Assembly: GCF_900626135.1 (NCBI RefSeq)
Contig: NZ_LR130785.1
Location: forward strand, 629,241 to 653,240
Direction of reading: 5' to 3'
DNA from: Senegalia massiliensis
GTDB taxonomy: Bacteria; Bacillota; Clostridia; Tissierellales; SIT17
DNA length: 24,000 nucleotides
The notes below the pieces were generated by a model. The model was not told the origin of the DNA and made no database searches. It saw only the letters and a program-made list of their open reading frames with translations. How positions within the stretch are numbered: position 1 is the stretch's first letter; each line of letters opens with the position of its first letter. This document shows, piece after piece, positions 2,400 through 11,967 of the stretch. Both the position numbers and the translations under genes were made by a program.

Positions 2400-3140
2400 A
2401 TGAGTAGAATTTTATTTGCAGGAGAAACTTGGTTTACACATACTTTACATGTGAAAGGATTTGATTCTTTTACAACTAGTTCTTATGGTGAAGGTATAAA
2501 ATGGATAAAGGAAGCTTTAGAAGAAGGTGGAAATGAAGTAGTACATGTGCCTAATCATAAAGTACAAGAAGATTTTCCATATACATTAGAAGAATTAAAA
2601 GAATATGATTTAGTTATTCTTTCTGATATAGGATCAAACACATTATTATTACCTGATTCAACATTTGTAAAAAGTGAAAAAAATCCAGATAGATGTGAAT
2701 TAATAAAAGAATATGTAATGGATGGTGGAGCATTTATTATGATTGGTGGATATATGGCATTCACAGGAATAGATGCAAAGTCTAGATATGGAGAAACTGC
2801 TATAAAAGATGTATTACCAGTTAAATGCTTAGAAAAAGACGATAGAGTAGAATTACCACAAGGAATTACACCAGTAATAGAAAAAGAACATGAAATATTA
2901 AATGGTGTAGATAATAATTGGCCACATTTCTTAGGTTATAATAAAACTATTGCAAAAGAAGATGCAACAGTATTAGCAACCATAGGAAATGATCCATTTA
3001 TAGCTGTAGCAGAATATGGAAAAGGAAAATCAGCAGTATTTACTTCAGATTGTGCACCGCATTGGGGTCCAACTGAATTTGTAGAGTGGAAATATTATAA
3101 TAAGTTTTGGAATAATCTAATTGATTGGGTAACGAAATAA
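2400..3140 (+). CDS. Class-I glutamine-amidotransferase-like fold protein of unknown function (putative GATase1-like/DUF1355-type)
   Basis: 246 aa with RBS AGGAGG before ATG 2400. The blocks DLVILSDIGSNTLLL and GGAFIMIGGYMAFTG resemble the GATase1-like cytoplasmic protein family. This assignment is from memory and has not been searched. Confidence 0.45.
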   Translation: MSRILFAGETWFTHTLHVKGFDSFTTSSYGEGIKWIKEALEEGGNEVVHVPNHKVQEDFPYTLEELKEYDLVILSDIGSNTLLLPDSTFVKSEKNPDRCELIKEYVMDGGAFIMIGGYMAFTGIDAKSRYGETAIKDVLPVKCLEKDDRVELPQGITPVIEKEHEILNGVDNNWPHFLGYNKTIAKEDATVLATIGNDPFIAVAEYGKGKSAVFTSDCAPHWGPTEFVEWKYYNKFWNNLIDWVTK

Positions 3141-3151
3141 GGTAACATAAC

Positions 3152-3191
3152 AAATAAATGACTTCTATAATTATAGAAGTCATTTATTTTT
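3152..3191 (+). terminator. Rho-independent terminator (19-bp perfect stem)
   Basis: aaataaatgacttctataa/ttatagaagtcatttattt is perfectly self-complementary around 3170/3171. The 3' arm runs into a T tract. Confidence 0.8.
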
Positions 3192-3246
3192 AATTCAAGT
3201 TAATTAGACCTTATGAGTAATTAAGTATGATAATTTTAAAATAATA

Positions 3247-3274
3247 TTGCATTATATAAAATATATGGTATAAT
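3247..3274 (+). promoter_or_regulatory. Sigma-A type promoter of the yhf-like operon (TTGCAT-16 nt-TGgTATAAT)
   Basis: -35 TTGCAT at 3247-3252. Extended -10 TGgTATAAT with TATAAT at 3269-3274. The predicted transcription start is about 3281, right at the 26-nt repeat. Confidence 0.6.
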
Positions 3275-3281
3275 GAAATTA

Positions 3282-3307
3282 CAATATACAAAAAAATGTA
3301 CATTGAA
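3282..3307 (+). promoter_or_regulatory. 26-nt repeat copy 1 (caatatacaaaaaaatgtacattgaa), candidate operator at +1 of the yhfZ promoter
   Basis: Identical 26/26 to 4266-4291. It contains the palindrome ATGTACAT and the imperfect inverted repeat ATATACA-AAAAA-TGTACAT. Confidence 0.5.
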
Positions 3308-3322
3308 GAAAGGCTAGATACG

Positions 3323-4255
3323 ATGAAGCAATATAAAGATAAATTAATGTCTAAAAATGGAAAAGTTATTATATCCCTTGCTAGAGAAATGTTAACTTAT
3401 TACTTAGATGACAGAATAAAAACAGTAAAAGAATATTCAGAGTCTTACAATACTGCTAGAGGAACTATTCAATCTGCTTTAAAATTTCTTCAAGAAATTA
3501 AAGCAGTAAAATTAGAATCTAGAGGTCATTTAGGCACATATATAGTTGATGTAGATTATGATAAGCTATGGTCTGTTTCAGATTTTAATGTAATAATGGG
3601 TGTTATGCCTTTACCTTATTCTAAAAGATATGAAGGACTAGCTACTGGTTTTTATAAGAACTTTGAAAAAAGGAATATACCTTTTAGTTTAGCTTTTATG
3701 AGAGGTTCAAGTAAAAGGATTGAAGCCTTAACTCTTGGAAGATATAATTTTGCTATTACTTCAAAGTTAGCTGCTAGGTTAGAGATGAGAAAATCTTCTA
3801 ATATTGAAATAGCATATGAATTTGGAGAAGAAAGTTACGTTGGTAGACATGTAATAGTCTTGAGAGATAAGAATAAATTTGAGATAGAAAAAAATATGAG
3901 AGTAGCAATAGATACCCAATCTATTGATCAAATTATATTAACATCTAATGAATGTAAAGATAAAGATATAGAATATATAGAAACTCCTTATAATCAGATA
4001 TTAAATAAGATGAGCAATAATGAAATTGATGCAGCTATTTGGAATGTTGATGAAATAAAAGAAAAAAATTTAGAGTATAATATAGTACCTATGTCTAATA
4101 AAGAGAGTTCAGCTAAAGATGATACTATTGCAGTAGTAGTAATAAGAAAAGACGATAAAGATTTTAGTAATATTTTAAATAGATTTATAGACCTTTATAA
4201 AGTAGAACAGATACAACAAAAGGTAATGAAAGATGAATTGATACCAATTTATTAA
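3323..4255 (+). CDS. yhfZ: YhfZ-like transcriptional regulator (N-terminal wHTH plus C-terminal binding-protein-like domain)
   Basis: About 310 aa, against about 301 aa remembered for E. coli YhfZ. It is the first gene of a cluster holding all other yhf homologs. The track start ATG 3296 lies inside the repeat and has no SD. ATG 3323 is 9 nt after AAGG. Confidence 0.65.
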   Translation: MKQYKDKLMSKNGKVIISLAREMLTYYLDDRIKTVKEYSESYNTARGTIQSALKFLQEIKAVKLESRGHLGTYIVDVDYDKLWSVSDFNVIMGVMPLPYSKRYEGLATGFYKNFEKRNIPFSLAFMRGSSKRIEALTLGRYNFAITSKLAARLEMRKSSNIEIAYEFGEESYVGRHVIVLRDKNKFEIEKNMRVAIDTQSIDQIILTSNECKDKDIEYIETPYNQILNKMSNNEIDAAIWNVDEIKEKNLEYNIVPMSNKESSAKDDTIAVVVIRKDDKDFSNILNRFIDLYKVEQIQQKVMKDELIPIY

Positions 4256-4266
4256 AAATTTATATC
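4238..4266 (+). promoter_or_regulatory. Possible internal promoter (TTGATA-17 nt-TATATC) inside the yhfZ 3' end
   Basis: The spacing is good but the -10 is weak. It abuts repeat copy 2, with different geometry from copy 1. Confidence 0.3.
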
Positions 4267-4291
4267 AATATACAAAAAAATGTACATTGAA
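4266..4291 (+). promoter_or_regulatory. 26-nt repeat copy 2, candidate operator in the yhfZ-yhfY intergenic region
   Basis: Perfect copy of 3282-3307. It ends 13 nt before the yhfY ATG, just 5' of the SD GGAGGTG. Confidence 0.5.
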
Positions 4292-4304
4292 TGGAGGTGT
4301 AATT

Positions 4305-4664
4305 ATGGACGATTTATTAAAACAAAGACTTGAACTTTTAGAACAGGCTAGTGAAATAGATAGTGATATAAAAAATACTGTTATAGAGTTTGCTGACAAA
4401 TTTGAAAAGAAATATTCTTTAGAAATGACTGAAGATAATTCTTCAATGTTAATAACTCACTTAGCTATGGCGTTATCTAGAATTAAAAAAGGTGAAATAG
4501 TAGAAGCTATGGATAGCTTAGCTTTAGATGAGATTAAACAATGCAAAATTTATAATGATTTACCTGAGTTTTATAATGATATTGAGGAAAGGTTAAATAT
4601 AATTTTACCTCAATCAGAAAAGGATTTTATAGCACTTCATGCATGTACTTTAGTACTAAAATAA
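4305..4664 (+). CDS. yhfY: Stand-alone PRD-domain protein (YhfY-like)
   Basis: About 119 aa, against about 120 aa for E. coli YhfY. It is helical, and the segment MLITHLAMALSRIKKGE resembles a PRD phosphorylatable-His helix. The track start TTG 4287 overlaps the repeat. ATG 4305 follows GGAGGTG. Confidence 0.6.
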   Translation: MDDLLKQRLELLEQASEIDSDIKNTVIEFADKFEKKYSLEMTEDNSSMLITHLAMALSRIKKGEIVEAMDSLALDEIKQCKIYNDLPEFYNDIEERLNIILPQSEKDFIALHACTLVLK

Positions 4665-4678
4665 AAGGAGGTAGTATA

Positions 4679-5041
4679 ATGGTTAAATTTGTAGTTGGAG
4701 GACAAGTAGAAAAGCAAAATATCGCTGATCTAATAAAAGAAGTTGGAGGTGAAGATGTAGAAGTAACTGTAAAATCAGATTTACAAGCAGCTAATGATGT
4801 TAAGTCTGGTAAAGCTGATTATTATTTAGGCGCATGTCATACTGGCGGCGGTGGAGCACTTAGCATGGCTATAGCTTTACTTACTAGAGCTAAAACTTCA
4901 ACAATATCTATGCCTGGTAAACCACCTAAAGAAGAAGATATTATAAAAGCTGTAAATGAAGGAAAATTAGCATTTGGTTTTACAGGTGATCATTACGAAA
5001 AAGCAGTTCCTATAATTGTAAGAGAAATTTTAAAAAAATAA
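4679..5041 (+). CDS. yhfU: DUF2620 family protein (YhfU-like)
   Basis: 120 aa, against about 117 aa for E. coli YhfU. It has a beta-alpha N-terminus (KFVVGG) and a Cys-His-Gly-rich loop (YLGACHTGGGGALSMA). AAGGAGG at 4665-4671 precedes ATG 4679; the track start 4643 overlaps yhfY. Confidence 0.6.
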   Translation: MVKFVVGGQVEKQNIADLIKEVGGEDVEVTVKSDLQAANDVKSGKADYYLGACHTGGGGALSMAIALLTRAKTSTISMPGKPPKEEDIIKAVNEGKLAFGFTGDHYEKAVPIIVREILKK

Positions 5042-5057
5042 ATAGAGGAGTGAAAAA

Positions 5058-6338
5058 ATGAAAATAGTAATAATATCATTAATCGGTGCTTTAGCTTCTA
5101 TAATGGCTAACAAAGGTATAGCAGTATTTAATGATGGATTAAGACCTATAGTTCCAGAACATATTGAAGGAAGAATGAGTAGAAAAGAACTTGCAGCTAC
5201 TTCATTTGCTATGAGTTTTGGATTAGTTATAGGATTTGGAATTCCATTCTCATTAACAGCAAGCATTCTTTTAATACATTCAATATTATTAGGTACAGAT
5301 ATAATTGGTACTTTTTCACCAGATGGAAAAAAAGGTTTAGCAATATCAGGAATAGTTGGGGCTCTTTATGGAGCAGGAATATTACTAGGACTCGAAAGTG
5401 TAGTTAAAGCGTTTGAAATGTTACCAGTGAATTTCATGGGAAGTTTAGGTGAAGTTGGAGCTCCAATAGTAATAGCATTTGCAGCATTCCCAGCTCTTGC
5501 TACTGGATATCAATATGGAGCTAAAAAAGGTTTAATAAACTTAGGTTTTTCTATGTTAGCAAGACAAATTGCTATAGTTGTAAGTCCACTTGCAATAGGA
5601 GCAGTTTCAATAAATGTTAACCCTGAAGGTTCAGCACTAATTGTAGGTATGATTATATTAATTATTTATGCAGTAAGGGAAAAATCAGATGAAGAAGCTG
5701 TAGATTTAGTATCAGTATTTGCAGAAAGAGTAAAAAGAATAAAGAAAAATGTACCATATTTAATAGTTATGGGTGCACTTGTAGCAGCTGCTACTTCTTT
5801 AAACTTAATGGCAGGAGATCCTATCTCTCTTAATTTATTAGCAGAAGGTAAGAACATAGATGCAGGCTTTGCAGCTTTAGCTAGAGGTATTGGTTTTATA
5901 CCATTAATAGCATCTACTGCAATAGCAACAGGTGTATATGGTCCTATAGGAATGACTTTTGTATTTGTTGTAGGATTATTTATAGCAAATCCATTTGTAT
6001 CAGCAATTCTTGGTGGACTTGTTATTGGAATAGAAGTATTATTCTTAGATAAAATTTCTAAGTTGTTAGATAAATTCCCAGGCGTTAGAAAGTCTGGAGA
6101 CAATATACGTACTGCAATGTCAAAATTACTTGAAATTGCACTATTAGTTGGAGGTATGAATGCAGCTAATGCAATAGCTCCTGGTATTGGTTTCTTTGTA
6201 GTTATAGGTCTTTATATATTAAATGAAATAGCAGGTAAACCAGTAGTTAAAATGGCTGTAGGTCCTATATCAGCAATATTAGTTGGAGTACTTGCAAATA
6301 TCCTTTCAATTCTAGGGTTATTTACTCCACCAGCATAA
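5058..6338 (+). CDS. yhfT: Polytopic inner-membrane protein (YhfT-like putative transporter)
   Basis: 426 aa, against about 434 aa for E. coli YhfT. It is very hydrophobic and Gly/Ala/Ile-rich, with roughly 10-12 predicted TM segments. RBS GAGGAG. Confidence 0.65.
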   Translation: MKIVIISLIGALASIMANKGIAVFNDGLRPIVPEHIEGRMSRKELAATSFAMSFGLVIGFGIPFSLTASILLIHSILLGTDIIGTFSPDGKKGLAISGIVGALYGAGILLGLESVVKAFEMLPVNFMGSLGEVGAPIVIAFAAFPALATGYQYGAKKGLINLGFSMLARQIAIVVSPLAIGAVSINVNPEGSALIVGMIILIIYAVREKSDEEAVDLVSVFAERVKRIKKNVPYLIVMGALVAAATSLNLMAGDPISLNLLAEGKNIDAGFAALARGIGFIPLIASTAIATGVYGPIGMTFVFVVGLFIANPFVSAILGGLVIGIEVLFLDKISKLLDKFPGVRKSGDNIRTAMSKLLEIALLVGGMNAANAIAPGIGFFVVIGLYILNEIAGKPVVKMAVGPISAILVGVLANILSILGLFTPPA

Positions 6339-6346
6339 AATTATAT

Positions 6347-6384
6347 TTCTAACAAAGTCAAGGATATCCTTGACTTTGTTAGAA
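6347..6384. other. 38-nt perfect palindrome / intercistronic stem-loop (18-bp arms)
   Basis: ttctaacaaagtcaagga-ta-tccttgactttgttagaa. It is not followed by a T tract on the + strand (gataaaaaagg), so it is not a canonical terminator. Confidence 0.7.
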
Positions 6385-6404
6385 GATAAAAAAGGGGAAT
6401 TAGT

Positions 6405-7520
6405 ATGGATGAAACACAAAAAAATATATTATCACAAATGAATAAAGTTAGTAAGGCTATGTTAAAAGCAAAAGAAGAACTAAACAAAAGTGTAGTGTAT
6501 CAAAGAAAAGGTGTTCTAGATCAAGCTGTAATTACTCTTGAAAAAAATCCTAATAGCAATTTAACATTATTTGGCATCAAAAATACAGGTGAAATTGGAA
6601 TTGAGATGGCAATGAAATTAGAAAATGAAGCTGGATATTTTTTTCATACTATAGATAAAATGTCTGAAAGAGGAAGGGCTATAGATATAGACTTAATTAA
6701 TCCATTGACGGGAAGAGTAATGACAGGTTCATCTAGTGGTGGCTGTGTCAATATATTAAAGGGAATAAATGATTTAGCCATAGGTACTGATGGAGGTGGT
6801 TCTGTTTTAGCTCCTGCTATAAGTACTGGTCTTTTTTCAATTATGGCAAAAGGAATGGGGTTAAAAGGAAATAGCATCAAATCTTCAACTGATAATATAA
6901 AATTTACCCCTGGTATAGGAGTAATATCTCATAATTATAATATGTGTAAAATAGCTTTAAATGCACTTGTAGATAAAAATCATAATACAAATAGTAACAA
7001 AAAAATTAGAGTTCTTGTTCCAAAGAAAAATTCCATTACTCTTCCTAATGGTAATGATATGAGAGATGATTTAGAAAGAGTAATAAATCTAATAAAAGAG
7101 TATGTAGAAATTGTGGAAAAAGATTTTACTAGTTTAGAAGATAGACATTCTTCAATTTCTTTCTGTAATAAAATGTTTGATGAAGAGGATATAGATATTA
7201 TTTTATCTGTAGAAGGGCCAATAGATTTATATGGACTAGGTGATTCAGTATTAGGTACATGGGGAGAAGTTGGATCTGAAATACAAAATGACTCTGGTAA
7301 ATATTTATTGAAAATAGCTAATATGATTAATGCTACAGCTGTAAGTATACCTACTTCTGAGCTAGGTATGGGAGTTCTTATTATGGCTAAGGAAGGTTTA
7401 GAAAATGGTGAAATTGCTATAGAGTTAGGAGATAAAATAAGAGAATTATATGATAGACCAGAATTATATAATAGATATTTTATTGAAGAACACAAAAGCA
7501 AAAGTCTAGATTTTATATAA
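6405..7520 (+). CDS. Divergent, short amidase-signature (AS) family protein
   Basis: The AS core is TGSSSGGCVNILKGINDLAIGTDGGGSVLAPA (about nt 6726-6818), matching GGSSGG...G[ST]DxGGSxRxPA. Candidate triad: K59 (FGIKN), S109/S110 and S133. At 371 aa it is shorter than typical amidases of about 450-500 aa. Confidence 0.6.
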   Translation: MDETQKNILSQMNKVSKAMLKAKEELNKSVVYQRKGVLDQAVITLEKNPNSNLTLFGIKNTGEIGIEMAMKLENEAGYFFHTIDKMSERGRAIDIDLINPLTGRVMTGSSSGGCVNILKGINDLAIGTDGGGSVLAPAISTGLFSIMAKGMGLKGNSIKSSTDNIKFTPGIGVISHNYNMCKIALNALVDKNHNTNSNKKIRVLVPKKNSITLPNGNDMRDDLERVINLIKEYVEIVEKDFTSLEDRHSSISFCNKMFDEEDIDIILSVEGPIDLYGLGDSVLGTWGEVGSEIQNDSGKYLLKIANMINATAVSIPTSELGMGVLIMAKEGLENGEIAIELGDKIRELYDRPELYNRYFIEEHKSKSLDFI

Positions 7521-7538
7521 ATAAACAGGAGGTATAAA

Positions 7539-8447
7539 ATGAGTATAATAACTGTAAATGGAGAGATAGATAAAAATAGCTTAGGGTCGACTTATATACA
7601 TGAGCATTTAAGTGTTGATTTATCAGCTCATAAAAAAGATCCTGATACTAATTTTGATGATGTGGAATCATTGATTGATGAGATTAAAAATATAAAAAGT
7701 AAAGGCATAGATAGTATTGTAGAAGTTACAAATAGAGGTATGGGCAGAAATATAGAAGTAATGAAAAGAGTAGCAGATGAAACCGGAATCAATGTTATAG
7801 CTAGTACAGGATTTTATAAGGAACCTTTCTTGCCATCATATGTATATGAAATGGAAGAAAAAGAGTTAAGTAAGCTTTTAATAAAAGATCTTACAGAAGG
7901 AATAGATAATACTGATATTAAAGCCCATGTAATAGGTGAAATTGGTACTAGTAAGGATACTATGACAGATATGGAACATAAAATATTTAGAGTAGCAGCT
8001 AGAGCTCATCTTGAAACTGGTAGAGTTTTCTCTACTCATACTACATTAGGAACCTATGCTATAAAACAAATAGAATTTATGAAAAAACACAATATTGATC
8101 TTAGTAAAGTAGTTATAGGTCATTTAGATTTAAACTGTGATTCCGATTATCATTTAAGAATTGCTGATAATGGATGCTATTTAGCTTTTGATACAATAGG
8201 AAAAAATAATTATGAGAAAGATGAAGTACGTGTTAAATATATAAAGAATTTAATAGATAGAGGACATTTAAATCAAATAGTACTTTCTCAAGATATAACT
8301 AGAAAATCTCATTTAAAAATGAATGGTGGTATTGGTTATGATCATTTAATAGATAATTTTATACCAAAGCTTTTAGAGGCAGGAATAACACAATCACAAA
8401 TTGATAAAATGTTAAAAGAAAATCCACGTGAATTATTGGATATATAG
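7539..8447 (+). CDS. php: Phosphotriesterase homology protein (Php/YhfV-like amidohydrolase-superfamily enzyme)
   Basis: 302 aa. HxH metal motif TYIHEHL. VIGEIGTS carries a Glu where phosphotriesterases have the carbamylated Lys, as in E. coli Php. The further ligands STHT, IGHLD and LSQD are present. Confidence 0.82.
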   Translation: MSIITVNGEIDKNSLGSTYIHEHLSVDLSAHKKDPDTNFDDVESLIDEIKNIKSKGIDSIVEVTNRGMGRNIEVMKRVADETGINVIASTGFYKEPFLPSYVYEMEEKELSKLLIKDLTEGIDNTDIKAHVIGEIGTSKDTMTDMEHKIFRVAARAHLETGRVFSTHTTLGTYAIKQIEFMKKHNIDLSKVVIGHLDLNCDSDYHLRIADNGCYLAFDTIGKNNYEKDEVRVKYIKNLIDRGHLNQIVLSQDITRKSHLKMNGGIGYDHLIDNFIPKLLEAGITQSQIDKMLKENPRELLDI

Positions 8448-8458
8448 GGGGAATATAG

Positions 8459-9565
8459 ATGAAAGCATATCCTATAGAGACTATTAATATAGATAAGGCA
8501 AAAGAAAAACAATTTAAACTAGTTGATATAATTCATCAACATTTTGATGGTTATGAATTTCTCCAAAATGGAGATATGGGTGTAGTGCCAGGTGTAGGTG
8601 GTCCAAAATATACTAGAAAAGTAGAAAGTGTATTAGCAGATTTTTTTGGTTCAGAAGATGCTGTTTTAGTTCGTGGCTCAGGTACTGGAGCTATAAGAAA
8701 TGTAATGAATACAGTATTAAAACCTAATCAAAAAATATTAATTCATGATGCACCAATATATCCAACTACAAAAGTAATAATTGATAGTATGGGAATTGAA
8801 ACTATTAAAGTTAATTTTAATAATATTTCAGAAAAAGATGAAGAAAAAATTAGAAATATAGACTTTGCTCTAGTTCAACATTCAAGGCAAAAATTAGATG
8901 ATAGCTATAATTTAGAAGATGTAATAAACAAAATTAAAAAGGTTAATAAAAATATAAATATATTAGTAGATGATAACTATGTTGTAATGAAAGCTGATAA
9001 AATAGGCGTAGAACTTGGAGCAAGTGCAAGTGCTTTTTCATTATTCAAATTATTAGGACCAGCAGGAATAGGTTGTGTTGTTGGTAATACAGAAATAATA
9101 GAGAAAATAAGGAATATTAACTATTCTGGCGGTAGTCAAGTTCAAGGATATGAAGCTATGGATGCTTTAAGGTCATTAGTATATGCACCTGTTTCACTAG
9201 CAATTCAAGCTGAAGAAGGAAATAAAATTATAGATACATTAAATTCAGGAAAAATTAAAGGGGTAAAATCTTCTCTTATTGCAAATGCACAATCAAGAGT
9301 TATATTAGTTGAGTTTGATGAACCTATAGCAAAAAAAGTTTTAGAATATAGTTCAAAATTAGGGGCAGCTCCTTACCCAATTGGAGCTGAATCTAGATAT
9401 GAAGTTACTGCTATGTTTTATAGAGTTTCTGGGACGTTTTTGAAATCTAATCCTAAGTTAGAAGATTATATTATACGTATAAATCCAATGAGAGCAGGTT
9501 CAAAAACTGTTCTTAGAGTATTAGAGCAAGCTATAGAAATGGCCCTTCAAAGAGGTGATAATTAG
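8459..9565 (+). CDS. yhfS: YhfS-like fold-type-I PLP-dependent enzyme
   Basis: 368 aa, against about 361 aa for E. coli YhfS. Motifs: GSGTGAIRN, VDDNY and SAFSLFKLLGP (candidate PLP lysine). Confidence 0.65.
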   Translation: MKAYPIETINIDKAKEKQFKLVDIIHQHFDGYEFLQNGDMGVVPGVGGPKYTRKVESVLADFFGSEDAVLVRGSGTGAIRNVMNTVLKPNQKILIHDAPIYPTTKVIIDSMGIETIKVNFNNISEKDEEKIRNIDFALVQHSRQKLDDSYNLEDVINKIKKVNKNINILVDDNYVVMKADKIGVELGASASAFSLFKLLGPAGIGCVVGNTEIIEKIRNINYSGGSQVQGYEAMDALRSLVYAPVSLAIQAEEGNKIIDTLNSGKIKGVKSSLIANAQSRVILVEFDEPIAKKVLEYSSKLGAAPYPIGAESRYEVTAMFYRVSGTFLKSNPKLEDYIIRINPMRAGSKTVLRVLEQAIEMALQRGDN

Positions 9566-10741
9566 ATGTTTTTAGATATGACAATAAAAAGAAATGAAAA
9601 CTTAATAAAATCTGCAATAGACCTTCATAAAAATGGTCTAATTAAACCTAATTCATATGTATTAGATATAGATTCTATAAGAGAAAATGCATCTAAATTA
9701 GCTAAGAAAGCAAAAGAATTAAATATAGAATTATATATGATGACAAAACAAATAGGTAGAAATCCTAAAGTTGCTGAAATAATAGCAGAAAGTGGTATCA
9801 AAAAAGCTGTAGCTGTAGACCCATGGGAAGCTATAAGACTAGCAGAATCTGGAGTGAAACTTGGAAATGTAGGTCATTTGGTGCAAATACCTACTAGTAT
9901 GATTAGACAAATTCTATCTTATAAGCCTGAAGTAATAACAGTATTTACATTAGATAAAGCAATAGAAATTTCAGAACAGGCTATAAAATTAGGAATGGTT
10001 CAAGATATATTATTAAAAGTTGTAGGAGAAAATGATAGATTATATCCAGGACAAATAGGTGGATTTAAAGAAAAAGAACTTATACAATATGCAGATAAAA
10101 TAAGAAAATTAAAGGGAGTAAATATAGTAGGAGTTACTGCTTTTCCATGCTTTTTATATAATTATGAAGCGAATAAAATAGAACCTACAAAAAATGCTCA
10201 TACAGCTATAAGATGTGCAAACATGTTAAAGGAAAAGTTAGATATCAACATAAAACAAGTAAATATTCCTAGTGCTAATACTATAGCTTCATTACCATTA
10301 TTAAAAGATATGGGAGGTACTCATGGAGAGCCAGGTCATGCTTTAACAGGTACTACACCTCTTCATGGTGACAATATATTAGAAGAAAAACCTGCTATGG
10401 TTTATGTAAGTGAAATATCACATTGTTTTGATGATAAGGCATATGTATATGGTGGTGGCTTTTATAGAAGATCTAGAATGAAAAAGGCTATGGTAGGTAA
10501 AGATTTTGAAAAGATGAAAGAAAATATATTTGAAATAGAAGAAATTGATCCTGAAGCTATAGACTATTACGGTACGTTAAAACTTGGAAATAAAAGTGTA
10601 GAAGTAGGAGATACAGTAATATATGCTTTTAGAACACAAATATTTGTAACAAGAAGTGAAGTAGTTTTAGTTGAAGGAATACAAAAAAACAATCCTAAAA
10701 TTATTGGAGTTTATGATAGTCAAGGAAATGAAATACGATAA
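9566..10741 (+). CDS. yhfX: YhfX-like fold-type-III PLP enzyme (alanine-racemase N-terminal-domain family)
   Basis: 391 aa, against about 387 aa for E. coli YhfX. YMMTKQIGRNP holds the candidate PLP lysine. The ATG directly abuts the yhfS stop (TAG ATG). Confidence 0.65.
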   Translation: MFLDMTIKRNENLIKSAIDLHKNGLIKPNSYVLDIDSIRENASKLAKKAKELNIELYMMTKQIGRNPKVAEIIAESGIKKAVAVDPWEAIRLAESGVKLGNVGHLVQIPTSMIRQILSYKPEVITVFTLDKAIEISEQAIKLGMVQDILLKVVGENDRLYPGQIGGFKEKELIQYADKIRKLKGVNIVGVTAFPCFLYNYEANKIEPTKNAHTAIRCANMLKEKLDINIKQVNIPSANTIASLPLLKDMGGTHGEPGHALTGTTPLHGDNILEEKPAMVYVSEISHCFDDKAYVYGGGFYRRSRMKKAMVGKDFEKMKENIFEIEEIDPEAIDYYGTLKLGNKSVEVGDTVIYAFRTQIFVTRSEVVLVEGIQKNNPKIIGVYDSQGNEIR

Positions 10742-10758
10742 ACAAGGTGGTGACAAAA

Positions 10759-11967
10759 TTGAAAAAAAGAGCAATAATATTAATATTAGATAGCTTAGGT
10801 GTTGGATATATGGATGATGTAGAAGAAACTAGACCTCAAGATATAGGTGCAAATACTTTTAAGCATATATTAGATAATGCTAAAAATATAGAAATACCTA
10901 ATTTAGAAAAGCTAGGCATAAATAAGATAGTAAAGCATAATAGACTTAAGGAAACTAAAAATAAAGCTAGTTATGGTAAATTAAATCTTAAGCACTATGG
11001 AGCAGATAGTTATGCAGGTCATCAAGAGATTATGGGAACTGATCCAAAAAAACCTTTGATGAAACCTTTTGTGTATTATATAGATAAAGTAAAATCAGCT
11101 TTAGAAGAGGCAGGATATAAGGTTCAAATACCAAATAAAGAAAAACCATATATATTGGTAAATGAATTAGTAGTAGTTGCGGACAATATAGAGACAGATT
11201 ATGGACAGATATATAATATAAGTGCTCCACTTGATTATATATCCTTTGACGAAGTTATGGAAATTGGAAAGATTGTAAGAAAAAATGTAGAAGTGAATAG
11301 AGTTATAGCTCTAGGTGGTAGAGATGTAAAACTAGAACAATTAATTGATAGTATAGAGCAAAGGGAAGATGGTTTAGTTGGTGTTAATTCTCCTAAATCA
11401 GGAGTGTATAAATCAGATTATCATGCAAGGCATATGGGATATGGTGTTGACCCTGAAAAACAAATTTCATCTATATTATCAAATTCAGATAAAGAAGTTA
11501 CTTTGATTGGCAAAATGCAAGATGTTATTGAATGTAGTGATGCAACTAAAATACCTGCAGTTGATACAGAACTAGTAATGGAAAAAATATTAGTTAGTCT
11601 TGATAATATGAATGAAGGGTTAATATCAGCTACAGTTCAAGAAACAGATTTAAGAGGACATGCACAAGATGTAGAAGGATATGCTGAAAAGATAATGATT
11701 GTAGATAAATATTTAGAAAGCATATTAGAAAAAATGACTGACGAAGATATTTTATTTATAAGCGCAGATCATGGAAATGACCCTACAAGTGATAATAGTC
11801 AACATACTAGAGAAAAGACATTTTTATTGGTATATGGTAAAAATATAAAAAATGTTAATATAGGTGAAAGAAAAACTCTCTCAGATATATCAGCTACAAT
11901 AGCAGATTATTTTAAGGTAAATAAGCCTGAGAATGGTGAAAGTTTTTATGATATGTTAGTTGAGTGA
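10759..11967 (+). CDS. yhfW: YhfW-like phosphopentomutase-family (alkaline-phosphatase superfamily) mutase
   Basis: MKKRAIILILDSLGVGYM resembles the DeoB N-terminus. GADSYAGHQE aligns with DeoB GKDTxTGHWE, placing Ser at the phospho-acceptor position. ISADHGNDPT matches the ADHGxDP metal motif. TTG 10759 is 8 nt after AAGGTGG; the track start is GTG 10747. Confidence 0.75.
   Translation: MKKRAIILILDSLGVGYMDDVEETRPQDIGANTFKHILDNAKNIEIPNLEKLGINKIVKHNRLKETKNKASYGKLNLKHYGADSYAGHQEIMGTDPKKPLMKPFVYYIDKVKSALEEAGYKVQIPNKEKPYILVNELVVVADNIETDYGQIYNISAPLDYISFDEVMEIGKIVRKNVEVNRVIALGGRDVKLEQLIDSIEQREDGLVGVNSPKSGVYKSDYHARHMGYGVDPEKQISSILSNSDKEVTLIGKMQDVIECSDATKIPAVDTELVMEKILVSLDNMNEGLISATVQETDLRGHAQDVEGYAEKIMIVDKYLESILEKMTDEDILFISADHGNDPTSDNSQHTREKTFLLVYGKNIKNVNIGERKTLSDISATIADYFKVNKPENGESFYDMLVE

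Follow-up and report, generated by a model that had tools for sequence, protein, structure and literature searches.

Introduction

LacI (O1/O2), GalR (OE/OI) and DeoR are autoregulated repressors that are encoded at the locus they control and act through a main and an auxiliary operator. In these systems a palindromic operator lies over the transcription start, a second operator of the same type is found within the first gene of the unit or behind it, and the regulator carries a ligand-binding domain. Among regulators with a winged helix, members of the GntR family such as FadR and HutC act on dyad operators in the local control of catabolic clusters, and the LysR-type regulators BenM and CatM, which join a winged helix to an effector domain of the periplasmic-binding-protein (PBP) type 2 fold, recognise the site ATAC-N7-GTAT. 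Here we describe a candidate operator pair at the yhf locus of Senegalia massiliensis, in a stretch of 24,000 nucleotides (nt; RefSeq assembly GCF_900626135.1, contig NZ_LR130785.1, positions 629,241 to 653,240) that we refer to as a whole as the window. The element in question is a 26-nt sequence that occurs twice, once ahead of yhfZ and once ahead of the following gene, yhfY. An earlier note, made from the sequence alone, had proposed that the two copies are dual operators of YhfZ serving autoregulation and control of the structural genes. Conservation at both positions, uniqueness to the locus and co-occurrence with yhfZ support this proposal, with YhfZ as the presumed binding protein, and we consider it probable, at roughly 80%, that the two 26-mers are paired DNA operators through which YhfZ autoregulates its gene and controls the yhf structural genes.

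Results

A perfectly repeated dyad is confined to the yhf locus

The 26-mer CAATATACAAAAAAATGTACATTGAA is present on the plus strand at 3282-3307 and at 4266-4291, and the two copies agree at 26 of 26 positions, exactly as the earlier note had reported. Its core is a dyad of 24 base pairs (bp), CAATATACA-N6-TGTACATTG, whose 9-bp arms are complementary at 8 of 9 positions and flank a 6-bp spacer that is of the A6 type in both window copies (positions 4275-4280 in the internal copy). The same note had described the inverted repeat as ATATACA-N5-TGTACAT, which has to be amended, as the spacer is N6 and the repeat extends to arms of 9 bp. We refer to the dyad of the first copy as O1 and to that of the second as O2. 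Copy 1 begins 7 nt past the -10 box TATAAT (3269-3274) and ends 15 nt before the ATG at 3323; copy 2, in the 49 nt that separate yhfZ from yhfY, begins 10 nt past the yhfZ stop codon (4253-4255) and leaves 13 nt to the ATG at 4305. The distance of about 7 nt to the -10 box and the 13-15 nt to start codons preceded by a Shine-Dalgarno sequence (GAAAGG and GGAGG), both given earlier, are thus borne out by the sequence.

Scanning the window with up to three mismatches revealed no third copy of the 26-mer, and 100 dinucleotide-preserving shuffles yielded 0 matches. A search of the whole genome, which the earlier note had suggested as a check, found two copies in 2.87 Mb, both at the yhf locus; with up to three mismatches the 26-mer is absent from the rest of the 2,874,011 bases. 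When a weight matrix built from other genera, with the genus of the window left out, was applied to the genome, both window copies scored 28.2 bits and the next best site 13.0 bits, from which it follows that the YhfZ regulon in this organism would comprise the yhf operon alone. The two copies per genome and the 15-bit gap to the next site rule out a dispersed generic repeat.

The dyad accompanies yhfZ across the Firmicutes

We sampled YhfZ loci from two sources, 11 from 60 related genomes and 80 from a species-representative genome collection, covering Tissierellia, Clostridia (Clostridium), Thermoanaerobacter, Tepidanaerobacter, Erysipelotrichia (Erysipelotrichaceae), Alicyclobacillus and others at 37-76% protein identity. 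The search constrained only the core RTAC-N8-GTAY, within at most 200 nt upstream of yhfZ and at most 150 nt past its stop codon. Of 82 loci, 67 contain this core upstream of yhfZ, 71 past the stop codon and 59 at both positions, and the dyad is kept down to about 40% protein identity. Aligning the sites produces the consensus tCAATRTACA-aaatat-TGTAYATTG, with an invariant core TAC(A)/(T)GTA, that is TAC-N8-GTA, in 143 sites. Positions left unconstrained by the search are conserved as well, and in a mirror-symmetric manner, with AA at -2/-1 in 69 and 64 of 70 sites and TTG at the mirror positions. At a weight-matrix threshold of at least 14 bits, applied to 81 loci, every site is intergenic and none falls within yhfZ; two sites are present in 60 loci, one in 16 and three or four in 5.

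The distribution of the dyad among genomes follows that of the gene. Across 61 relatives, 7 of the 12 genomes that possess yhfZ contain strict matches, all of them adjoining yhfZ, and the 49 yhfZ-negative relatives contain three single one-strand matches in total; a genome of the same genus that lacks yhfZ has no strict match to the dyad. An anchored profile of 62 upstream regions further revealed that the upstream sites follow a clear promoter, TTGnAA-17-TAttaT. In the commonest geometry the -10 element ends 4 nt before the core, and thus 1 nt before the dyad, which places the transcription start within the left arm. Since in most genomes the site stands at the promoter of the regulator gene, and since it is restricted to the locus and tracks the gene through the phylogeny, we conclude that YhfZ is probably an autoregulated local regulator.

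Several loci depart from this arrangement. Some Clostridium loci have two extra high-scoring sites between divergent genes, at a distance of 1.0-1.4 kb upstream of yhfZ (L074, 300-330 and 465-490; likewise L068 and L075), one of which follows a TTGACA promoter ahead of a gene for a 236-residue LPXTG-anchored protein; these sites may represent an extension of the regulon. Loci L049 and L052 carry three tandem operators upstream of yhfZ (at about -190/-133, -126/-94 and -28) and none past the gene. In L015 (genome G045) no dyad can be recognised at the gene for a YhfZ homologue of about 40% identity, and a terminator-like hairpin takes the place of yhfY behind it; this homologue may be a paralogue of other specificity.

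YhfZ combines an HTH_41 winged helix with a PBP type 2 domain

The window YhfZ shows the two-domain organisation of its family, with an N-terminal HTH_41 domain (Pfam, 5.3e-17, 61.4 bits, cut-off 25) and a C-terminal YhfZ_C domain (2.3e-78, 263.2 bits, cut-off 35), and by Pfam it is the sole protein of the cluster with a DNA-binding domain. It shares 34% identity with E. coli YhfZ over the full length, and its C-terminal domain matches the crystal structure of YhfZ (PDB 2OZZ) at 1.4e-33. In the structure model (predicted local distance difference test score 86.5) a winged helix of three helices precedes a PBP type 2 fold; a fold search with this model returned MetQ/TauA-like proteins and a full-length likeness to the LysR-type regulators BenM and OxyR.

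We propose that YhfZ would bind the dyad as a dimer, with one helix-turn-helix per 9-bp arm, an arrangement that would fit a 24-bp dyad with two such arms and a 6-bp spacer. Bound at O1, directly past the extended -10 element and over the predicted transcription start, YhfZ would exclude or trap RNA polymerase and would thereby repress yhfZ together with all co-transcribed genes, while O2 in the gap between yhfZ and yhfY would subject the structural genes to a further level of control. The location of the site at or just past the -10 element and the transcription start is our reason for proposing that YhfZ represses. For induction of the operon, YhfZ would be released by a ligand, possibly in concert with the PRD protein YhfY.

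This layout shares with LacI, GalR and DeoR the features outlined above and differs in the regulator, which here combines HTH_41 with a PBP type 2 fold, and in that the regulator gene itself lies between the operators, 984 bp apart. Comparison with the GntR family gives a similarly mixed result. YhfZ resembles FadR and HutC in its small N-terminal winged helix, in its dyad operator and in the local control of what would be a catabolic cluster; its C-terminal domain, in contrast, is YhfZ_C (PBP type 2) and not an FCD, UTRA or aminotransferase-type effector domain, and the Pfam GntR model (PF00392) reaches only E=0.12 and 12.5 bits on YhfZ, below the cut-off of 27. The earlier note had regarded a GT..AC core as typical of GntR-like operators. 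This assignment does not hold, as the conserved core is TAC-N8-GTA, of the type AC-N8-GT rather than GT-N-AC, the inner palindrome ATGTACAT is not conserved across sites and the helix-turn-helix belongs to HTH_41; the core and the sub-threshold Pfam match led us to reject a GntR-type operator logic.

The likeness to LysR-type regulators goes further and includes both the winged helix with a PBP type 2 effector domain and the half-sites (ATAC...GTAT, as in the BenM/CatM site), a resemblance that is to be taken as a lead and not as a test. The spacing is N8 in the YhfZ sites compared to N7, the sites overlap or follow the -10 element instead of lying near -65, and the YhfZ model shows no clear counterpart to the long linker helix of LysR proteins. 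Pfam matches neither HTH_1 nor LysR_substrate on YhfZ, so that the likeness is one of fold only. Membership of the LysR type was therefore rejected, as both Pfam domains are missing and the sites do not lie upstream of the promoter as a T-N11-A box.

A related motif is found in Enterobacterales

In E. coli K-12 the sequence AAATATTCA-AAAAAA-TGAATATTT lies between yhfY and yhfX, and ATATTCA-N6-TGAAAAT ends 5 nt before the yhfZ start codon. The pattern ATATTCA-N6-TGAAWAT occurs in the 4.64-Mb K-12 genome at those two yhf places only, and the reversed control pattern gives 0 matches. Enterobacterales loci from metagenomes (73-100% YhfZ identity) mostly contain three sites. Two of these precede yhfZ, with centres at about -39 and -15, and the third lies between yhfY and yhfX.

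Both forms have the 9-6-9 dyad, the AT-rich flanks (AATAT...ATATT), the restriction to the yhf locus and the two control points, at the regulator's own promoter and in front of structural genes; they also share an internal site with an A6 spacer (the E. coli gap; L097, 8010-8030). They differ by one base per half-site, TACA/TGTA in the window compared to TTCA/TGAA in Enterobacterales, where in addition two tandem sites lie upstream of yhfZ and the internal site follows yhfY instead of preceding it. The window site thus displays the full architecture, in both positions and at the yhf locus only, without the TTCA/TGAA half-sites of the proteobacterial form, and on this comparative evidence we regard it as the Firmicute variant of a YhfZ-box architecture shared across phyla. 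The half-site difference is paralleled in the regulator, as the predicted recognition helix starts with R46-G-T-I-Q in the window YhfZ and with V-G-L-T-Q in E. coli.

The element is probably a DNA operator of YhfZ

As each copy lies just ahead of a Shine-Dalgarno sequence and O2 is surely transcribed if transcription of yhfZ reads through, the element could instead be an RNA hairpin in the 5' leaders of yhfZ and yhfY that controls translation or mRNA stability, or an antiterminator target of the PRD type involving YhfY, whose gene adjoins the element. The dyad RNA can indeed fold, with eight pairs and one A-C mismatch at -3.8 kcal/mol (z about -2.6 to -3.0), but the stem is weak and AT-rich, and variation among 124 distinct sites does not respect it. 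Changes that break pairing outnumber compensatory ones by 49 to 9 at pair 1, 34 to 4 at pair 3, 43 to 2 at pair 4 and 35 to 5 at pair 5, all nine pairs can form in only 16 of the 124 sites, and at the R/Y position 49 of 143 sites, the window copies included, have an A-C mismatch. Moreover, at most loci the -10 element abuts the dyad, so that the left arm is largely untranscribed and the hairpin could not be transcribed whole. YhfY consists of a PRD without the CAT RNA-binding domain, no terminator lies 3' of either copy, and the element matches no Rfam family; together with the lack of covariation, these observations led us to reject antitermination through a PRD protein and a ribonucleic antiterminator (RAT) of the BglG/SacY type. 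Because arm variation breaks pairing and, in the typical geometry, the transcription start falls inside the left arm, we favour a DNA operator over an RNA hairpin, which we now consider very improbable. We conclude that the element acts as DNA and is bound by a protein, which recognises each half-site independently.

A DNA operator could still belong to another protein, be it a different regulator or a complex in which YhfY acts as specificity factor. That YhfZ binds the dyad is deduced from sequence, and yhfY nearly always accompanies yhfZ. In 67 of 82 loci, however, the site occupies the promoter of yhfZ, and loci in which a gene other than yhfY comes after yhfZ (e.g. L079-L083) have it too; moreover, no other protein of the cluster has a DNA-binding domain. 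A global regulator was rejected, since both here and in E. coli the site is restricted to the yhf locus, and the TACA half-sites of Firmicutes and TTCA half-sites of Enterobacterales vary in step with the start of the YhfZ recognition helix. We therefore judge it improbable that a protein other than YhfZ is responsible. That the second copy is a non-functional by-product, such as a recent duplication or gene conversion of the promoter-proximal leader, is hardly credible to us. The identity of 26 of 26 positions, which takes in the spacer and three flanking bases, does exceed what the consensus demands, and upstream and downstream sites differ in the right arm in two congeners. Nevertheless, a downstream site occupies the same place in 71 of 82 loci from several classes and has its own conserved spacer type, AAAAAA as opposed to AAATAT upstream, and the related species from which locus L006 derives likewise has two copies identical to each other, so that the identity is no recent accident of this strain.

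With YhfZ thus preferred as the protein that binds both copies, four points weigh against the proposal of paired, repressing operators. The sign of regulation is deduced from the position of the sites only; 16 of 81 loci show a single site at the chosen threshold; our literature search found no binding or expression experiment for any YhfZ protein; and the -10-like sequence before O2 is poor in the window (TTATAT or TATATC), which leaves an internal promoter as the target of O2 with little direct support.

O2 may act with O1 or on an internal promoter

We give about even odds to O2 being an auxiliary operator that serves as a roadblock, as a loop partner of O1 or as both. That it is the operator of a weak internal promoter is possible, though we would not bet on it, and a role other than these seems unlikely. 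The roadblock or loop role was put somewhat ahead of the internal promoter because the candidate -10 in the window is poor and compact loci lack a -35.

The comparison among loci speaks to both roles. In loci of the Erysipelotrichaceae and Thermoanaerobacter types the downstream site follows a full promoter, for instance TTGACA-17-TATAAT in L071, and those of the Erysipelotrichaceae type often have no upstream site. A full promoter likewise clearly precedes the second site where this sits further from yhfZ. As the downstream site has its own promoter in some loci, the site can be a promoter operator in either position. In the compact arrangement, where the site lies 14-30 nt past the stop codon as in the window, the core is preceded by a T-run and, at 4 nt, by a hexamer that weakly resembles a -10 element and has A2 and T6 in 39% of loci; the anchored profile of these loci contains no conserved -35 ahead of the downstream site. 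The weak promoter that the earlier note had placed at 4238-4266 accordingly stays unproven.

In many loci of the Tissierellia type a run of about seven T directly follows the yhfZ stop codon, ahead of the downstream operator (consensus before the core TA.t..TtTTTTTaa.aT.AAT); the window has AAAATTTATAT at the equivalent position, 4256-4265 (compare loci L017-L056). The T-run could belong to a weak promoter, bend the DNA or help to release stalled polymerase. The spacer also sets the two positions apart, as the internal site has a direction-specific A6 in Firmicutes and Enterobacterales compared to the palindromic AAATAT upstream; on the coding strand the internal spacer is exactly AAAAAA in 19 of about 50 compact Firmicute sites and A-rich in most.

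The centre-to-centre distance between O1 and O2 is 984 bp in the window and 971-1020 bp across loci L005-L096, with a pile-up near 983, 993 and 1003 that resembles a ladder of about 10 bp. Helical phasing has a Rayleigh R of 0.44 over 39 distinct arrangements (permutation p about 0.001), a value that is confounded by related loci sharing distances and further weakened by the stop-codon anchor, which builds in an anticorrelation, and by distinct totals that are almost continuous. Two sites in 60 of 81 loci, the A6 spacer kept across phyla and the pile-up of distances, the last confounded by descent, hint at a configuration in which a YhfZ tetramer would bridge O1 and O2 and loop out the segment of about 1 kb that holds yhfZ, with O2, through its A6 spacer and the preceding T-run, doubling as a protein-dependent stop to read-through. 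We hold this configuration to be doubtful.

Organisation of the locus

The yhf cluster in the window is complete. Its features are collected in Table 1, and the following observations concern single entries. A gene of the preceding operon, GATase1-like, ends at 3140, and the palindrome of the terminator behind it also scored as terminator-like on the minus strand. The yhfZ promoter, a good promoter of the sigma-A type, had been overlooked by a simple scan, as its -35 matches at 3 of 6 positions only; transcription is predicted to start near 3281. Another inverted repeat, ATTGATACCAATTT/AAATTTATATCAAT, with arms that are 86% complementary, lies at 4237-4269. It runs across the yhfZ stop codon into O2, with which it shares the first four bases of the operator, and in the RNA fold it lengthens the O2 hairpin to -6.4 kcal/mol, a value without significance (z = -1.15).

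The six-frame open reading frames begin inside the repeat, at ATG 3296 and TTG 4287. These starts had been called artefacts in favour of 3323 and 4305, and the relatives agree: the internal starts are not conserved, in L018 the ATG inside the upstream site is out of frame with yhfZ and reaches a stop and the TTG inside the downstream site meets an in-frame TAA, and the pairs of Shine-Dalgarno sequence and ATG equivalent to 3323 and 4305 are conserved, with homologue alignments starting there.

Table 1 Features of the yhf control region and cluster (positions in the window)
Feature	Positions	Strand	Remarks
Hairpin terminator of the preceding operon	3147-3194	+	24-nt arms, 92% complementary, then a T-run on the plus strand; upstream boundary of the yhf control region
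yhfZ promoter, -35 TTGCAT	3247-3252	+	Read from sequence; relatives L017 and L018 have TTGAAT in the same place
yhfZ promoter, extended -10 TGgTATAAT	3266-3274	+	16-nt spacer to the -35; conserved in relatives
O1 (putative operator), dyad CAATATACA-N6-TGTACATTG, first 26-mer copy	3282-3305	strandless	About +2 to +25 of the yhfZ promoter; 28.2 bits
yhfZ Shine-Dalgarno GAAAGG	3308-3313	+	9 nt ahead of ATG 3323
yhfZ, HTH_41 winged helix and YhfZ_C	3323-4255	+	Pfam, PDB match, structure model
Candidate weak internal promoter, TTGATA-16/17-TTATAT or TATATC	4238-4266	+	Read from sequence, unproven
O2 (putative operator), identical 24-bp dyad, second 26-mer copy	4266-4289	strandless	Ends 3 nt before the yhfY Shine-Dalgarno
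yhfY Shine-Dalgarno GGAGG	4293-4297	+	7 nt ahead of ATG 4305
yhfY, stand-alone PRD-domain protein	4305-4664	+	PRD 3.4e-13; first gene past O2
Presumed controlled structural genes	4643-11967	+	yhfU (DUF2620), yhfT, amidase-like gene, php (PTE), yhfS, yhfX, yhfW

Discussion

The mode of regulation proposed here is ordinary, and the motif of the YhfZ family appears to be unpublished. Our literature search returned no paper describing a YhfZ binding site, and yhfZ was named only in lists, of bacterial interspersed mosaic elements (BIMEs) and of sigma-54 candidates. Should YhfZ bridge O1 and O2, the repression loop would enclose the gene of the regulator that forms it.

Conservation of the yhf/php cluster extends from E. 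coli to Clostridia, and the literature search gave no assigned substrate or inducer for it. A defined operator would provide an experimental handle on this question, as O1/O2 reporters or YhfZ-operator binding assays could be used to screen for the inducing compound. Furthermore, the one-base difference between the Firmicute and proteobacterial half-sites, together with the differing recognition helices, would offer a natural pair for studies of HTH_41 specificity.

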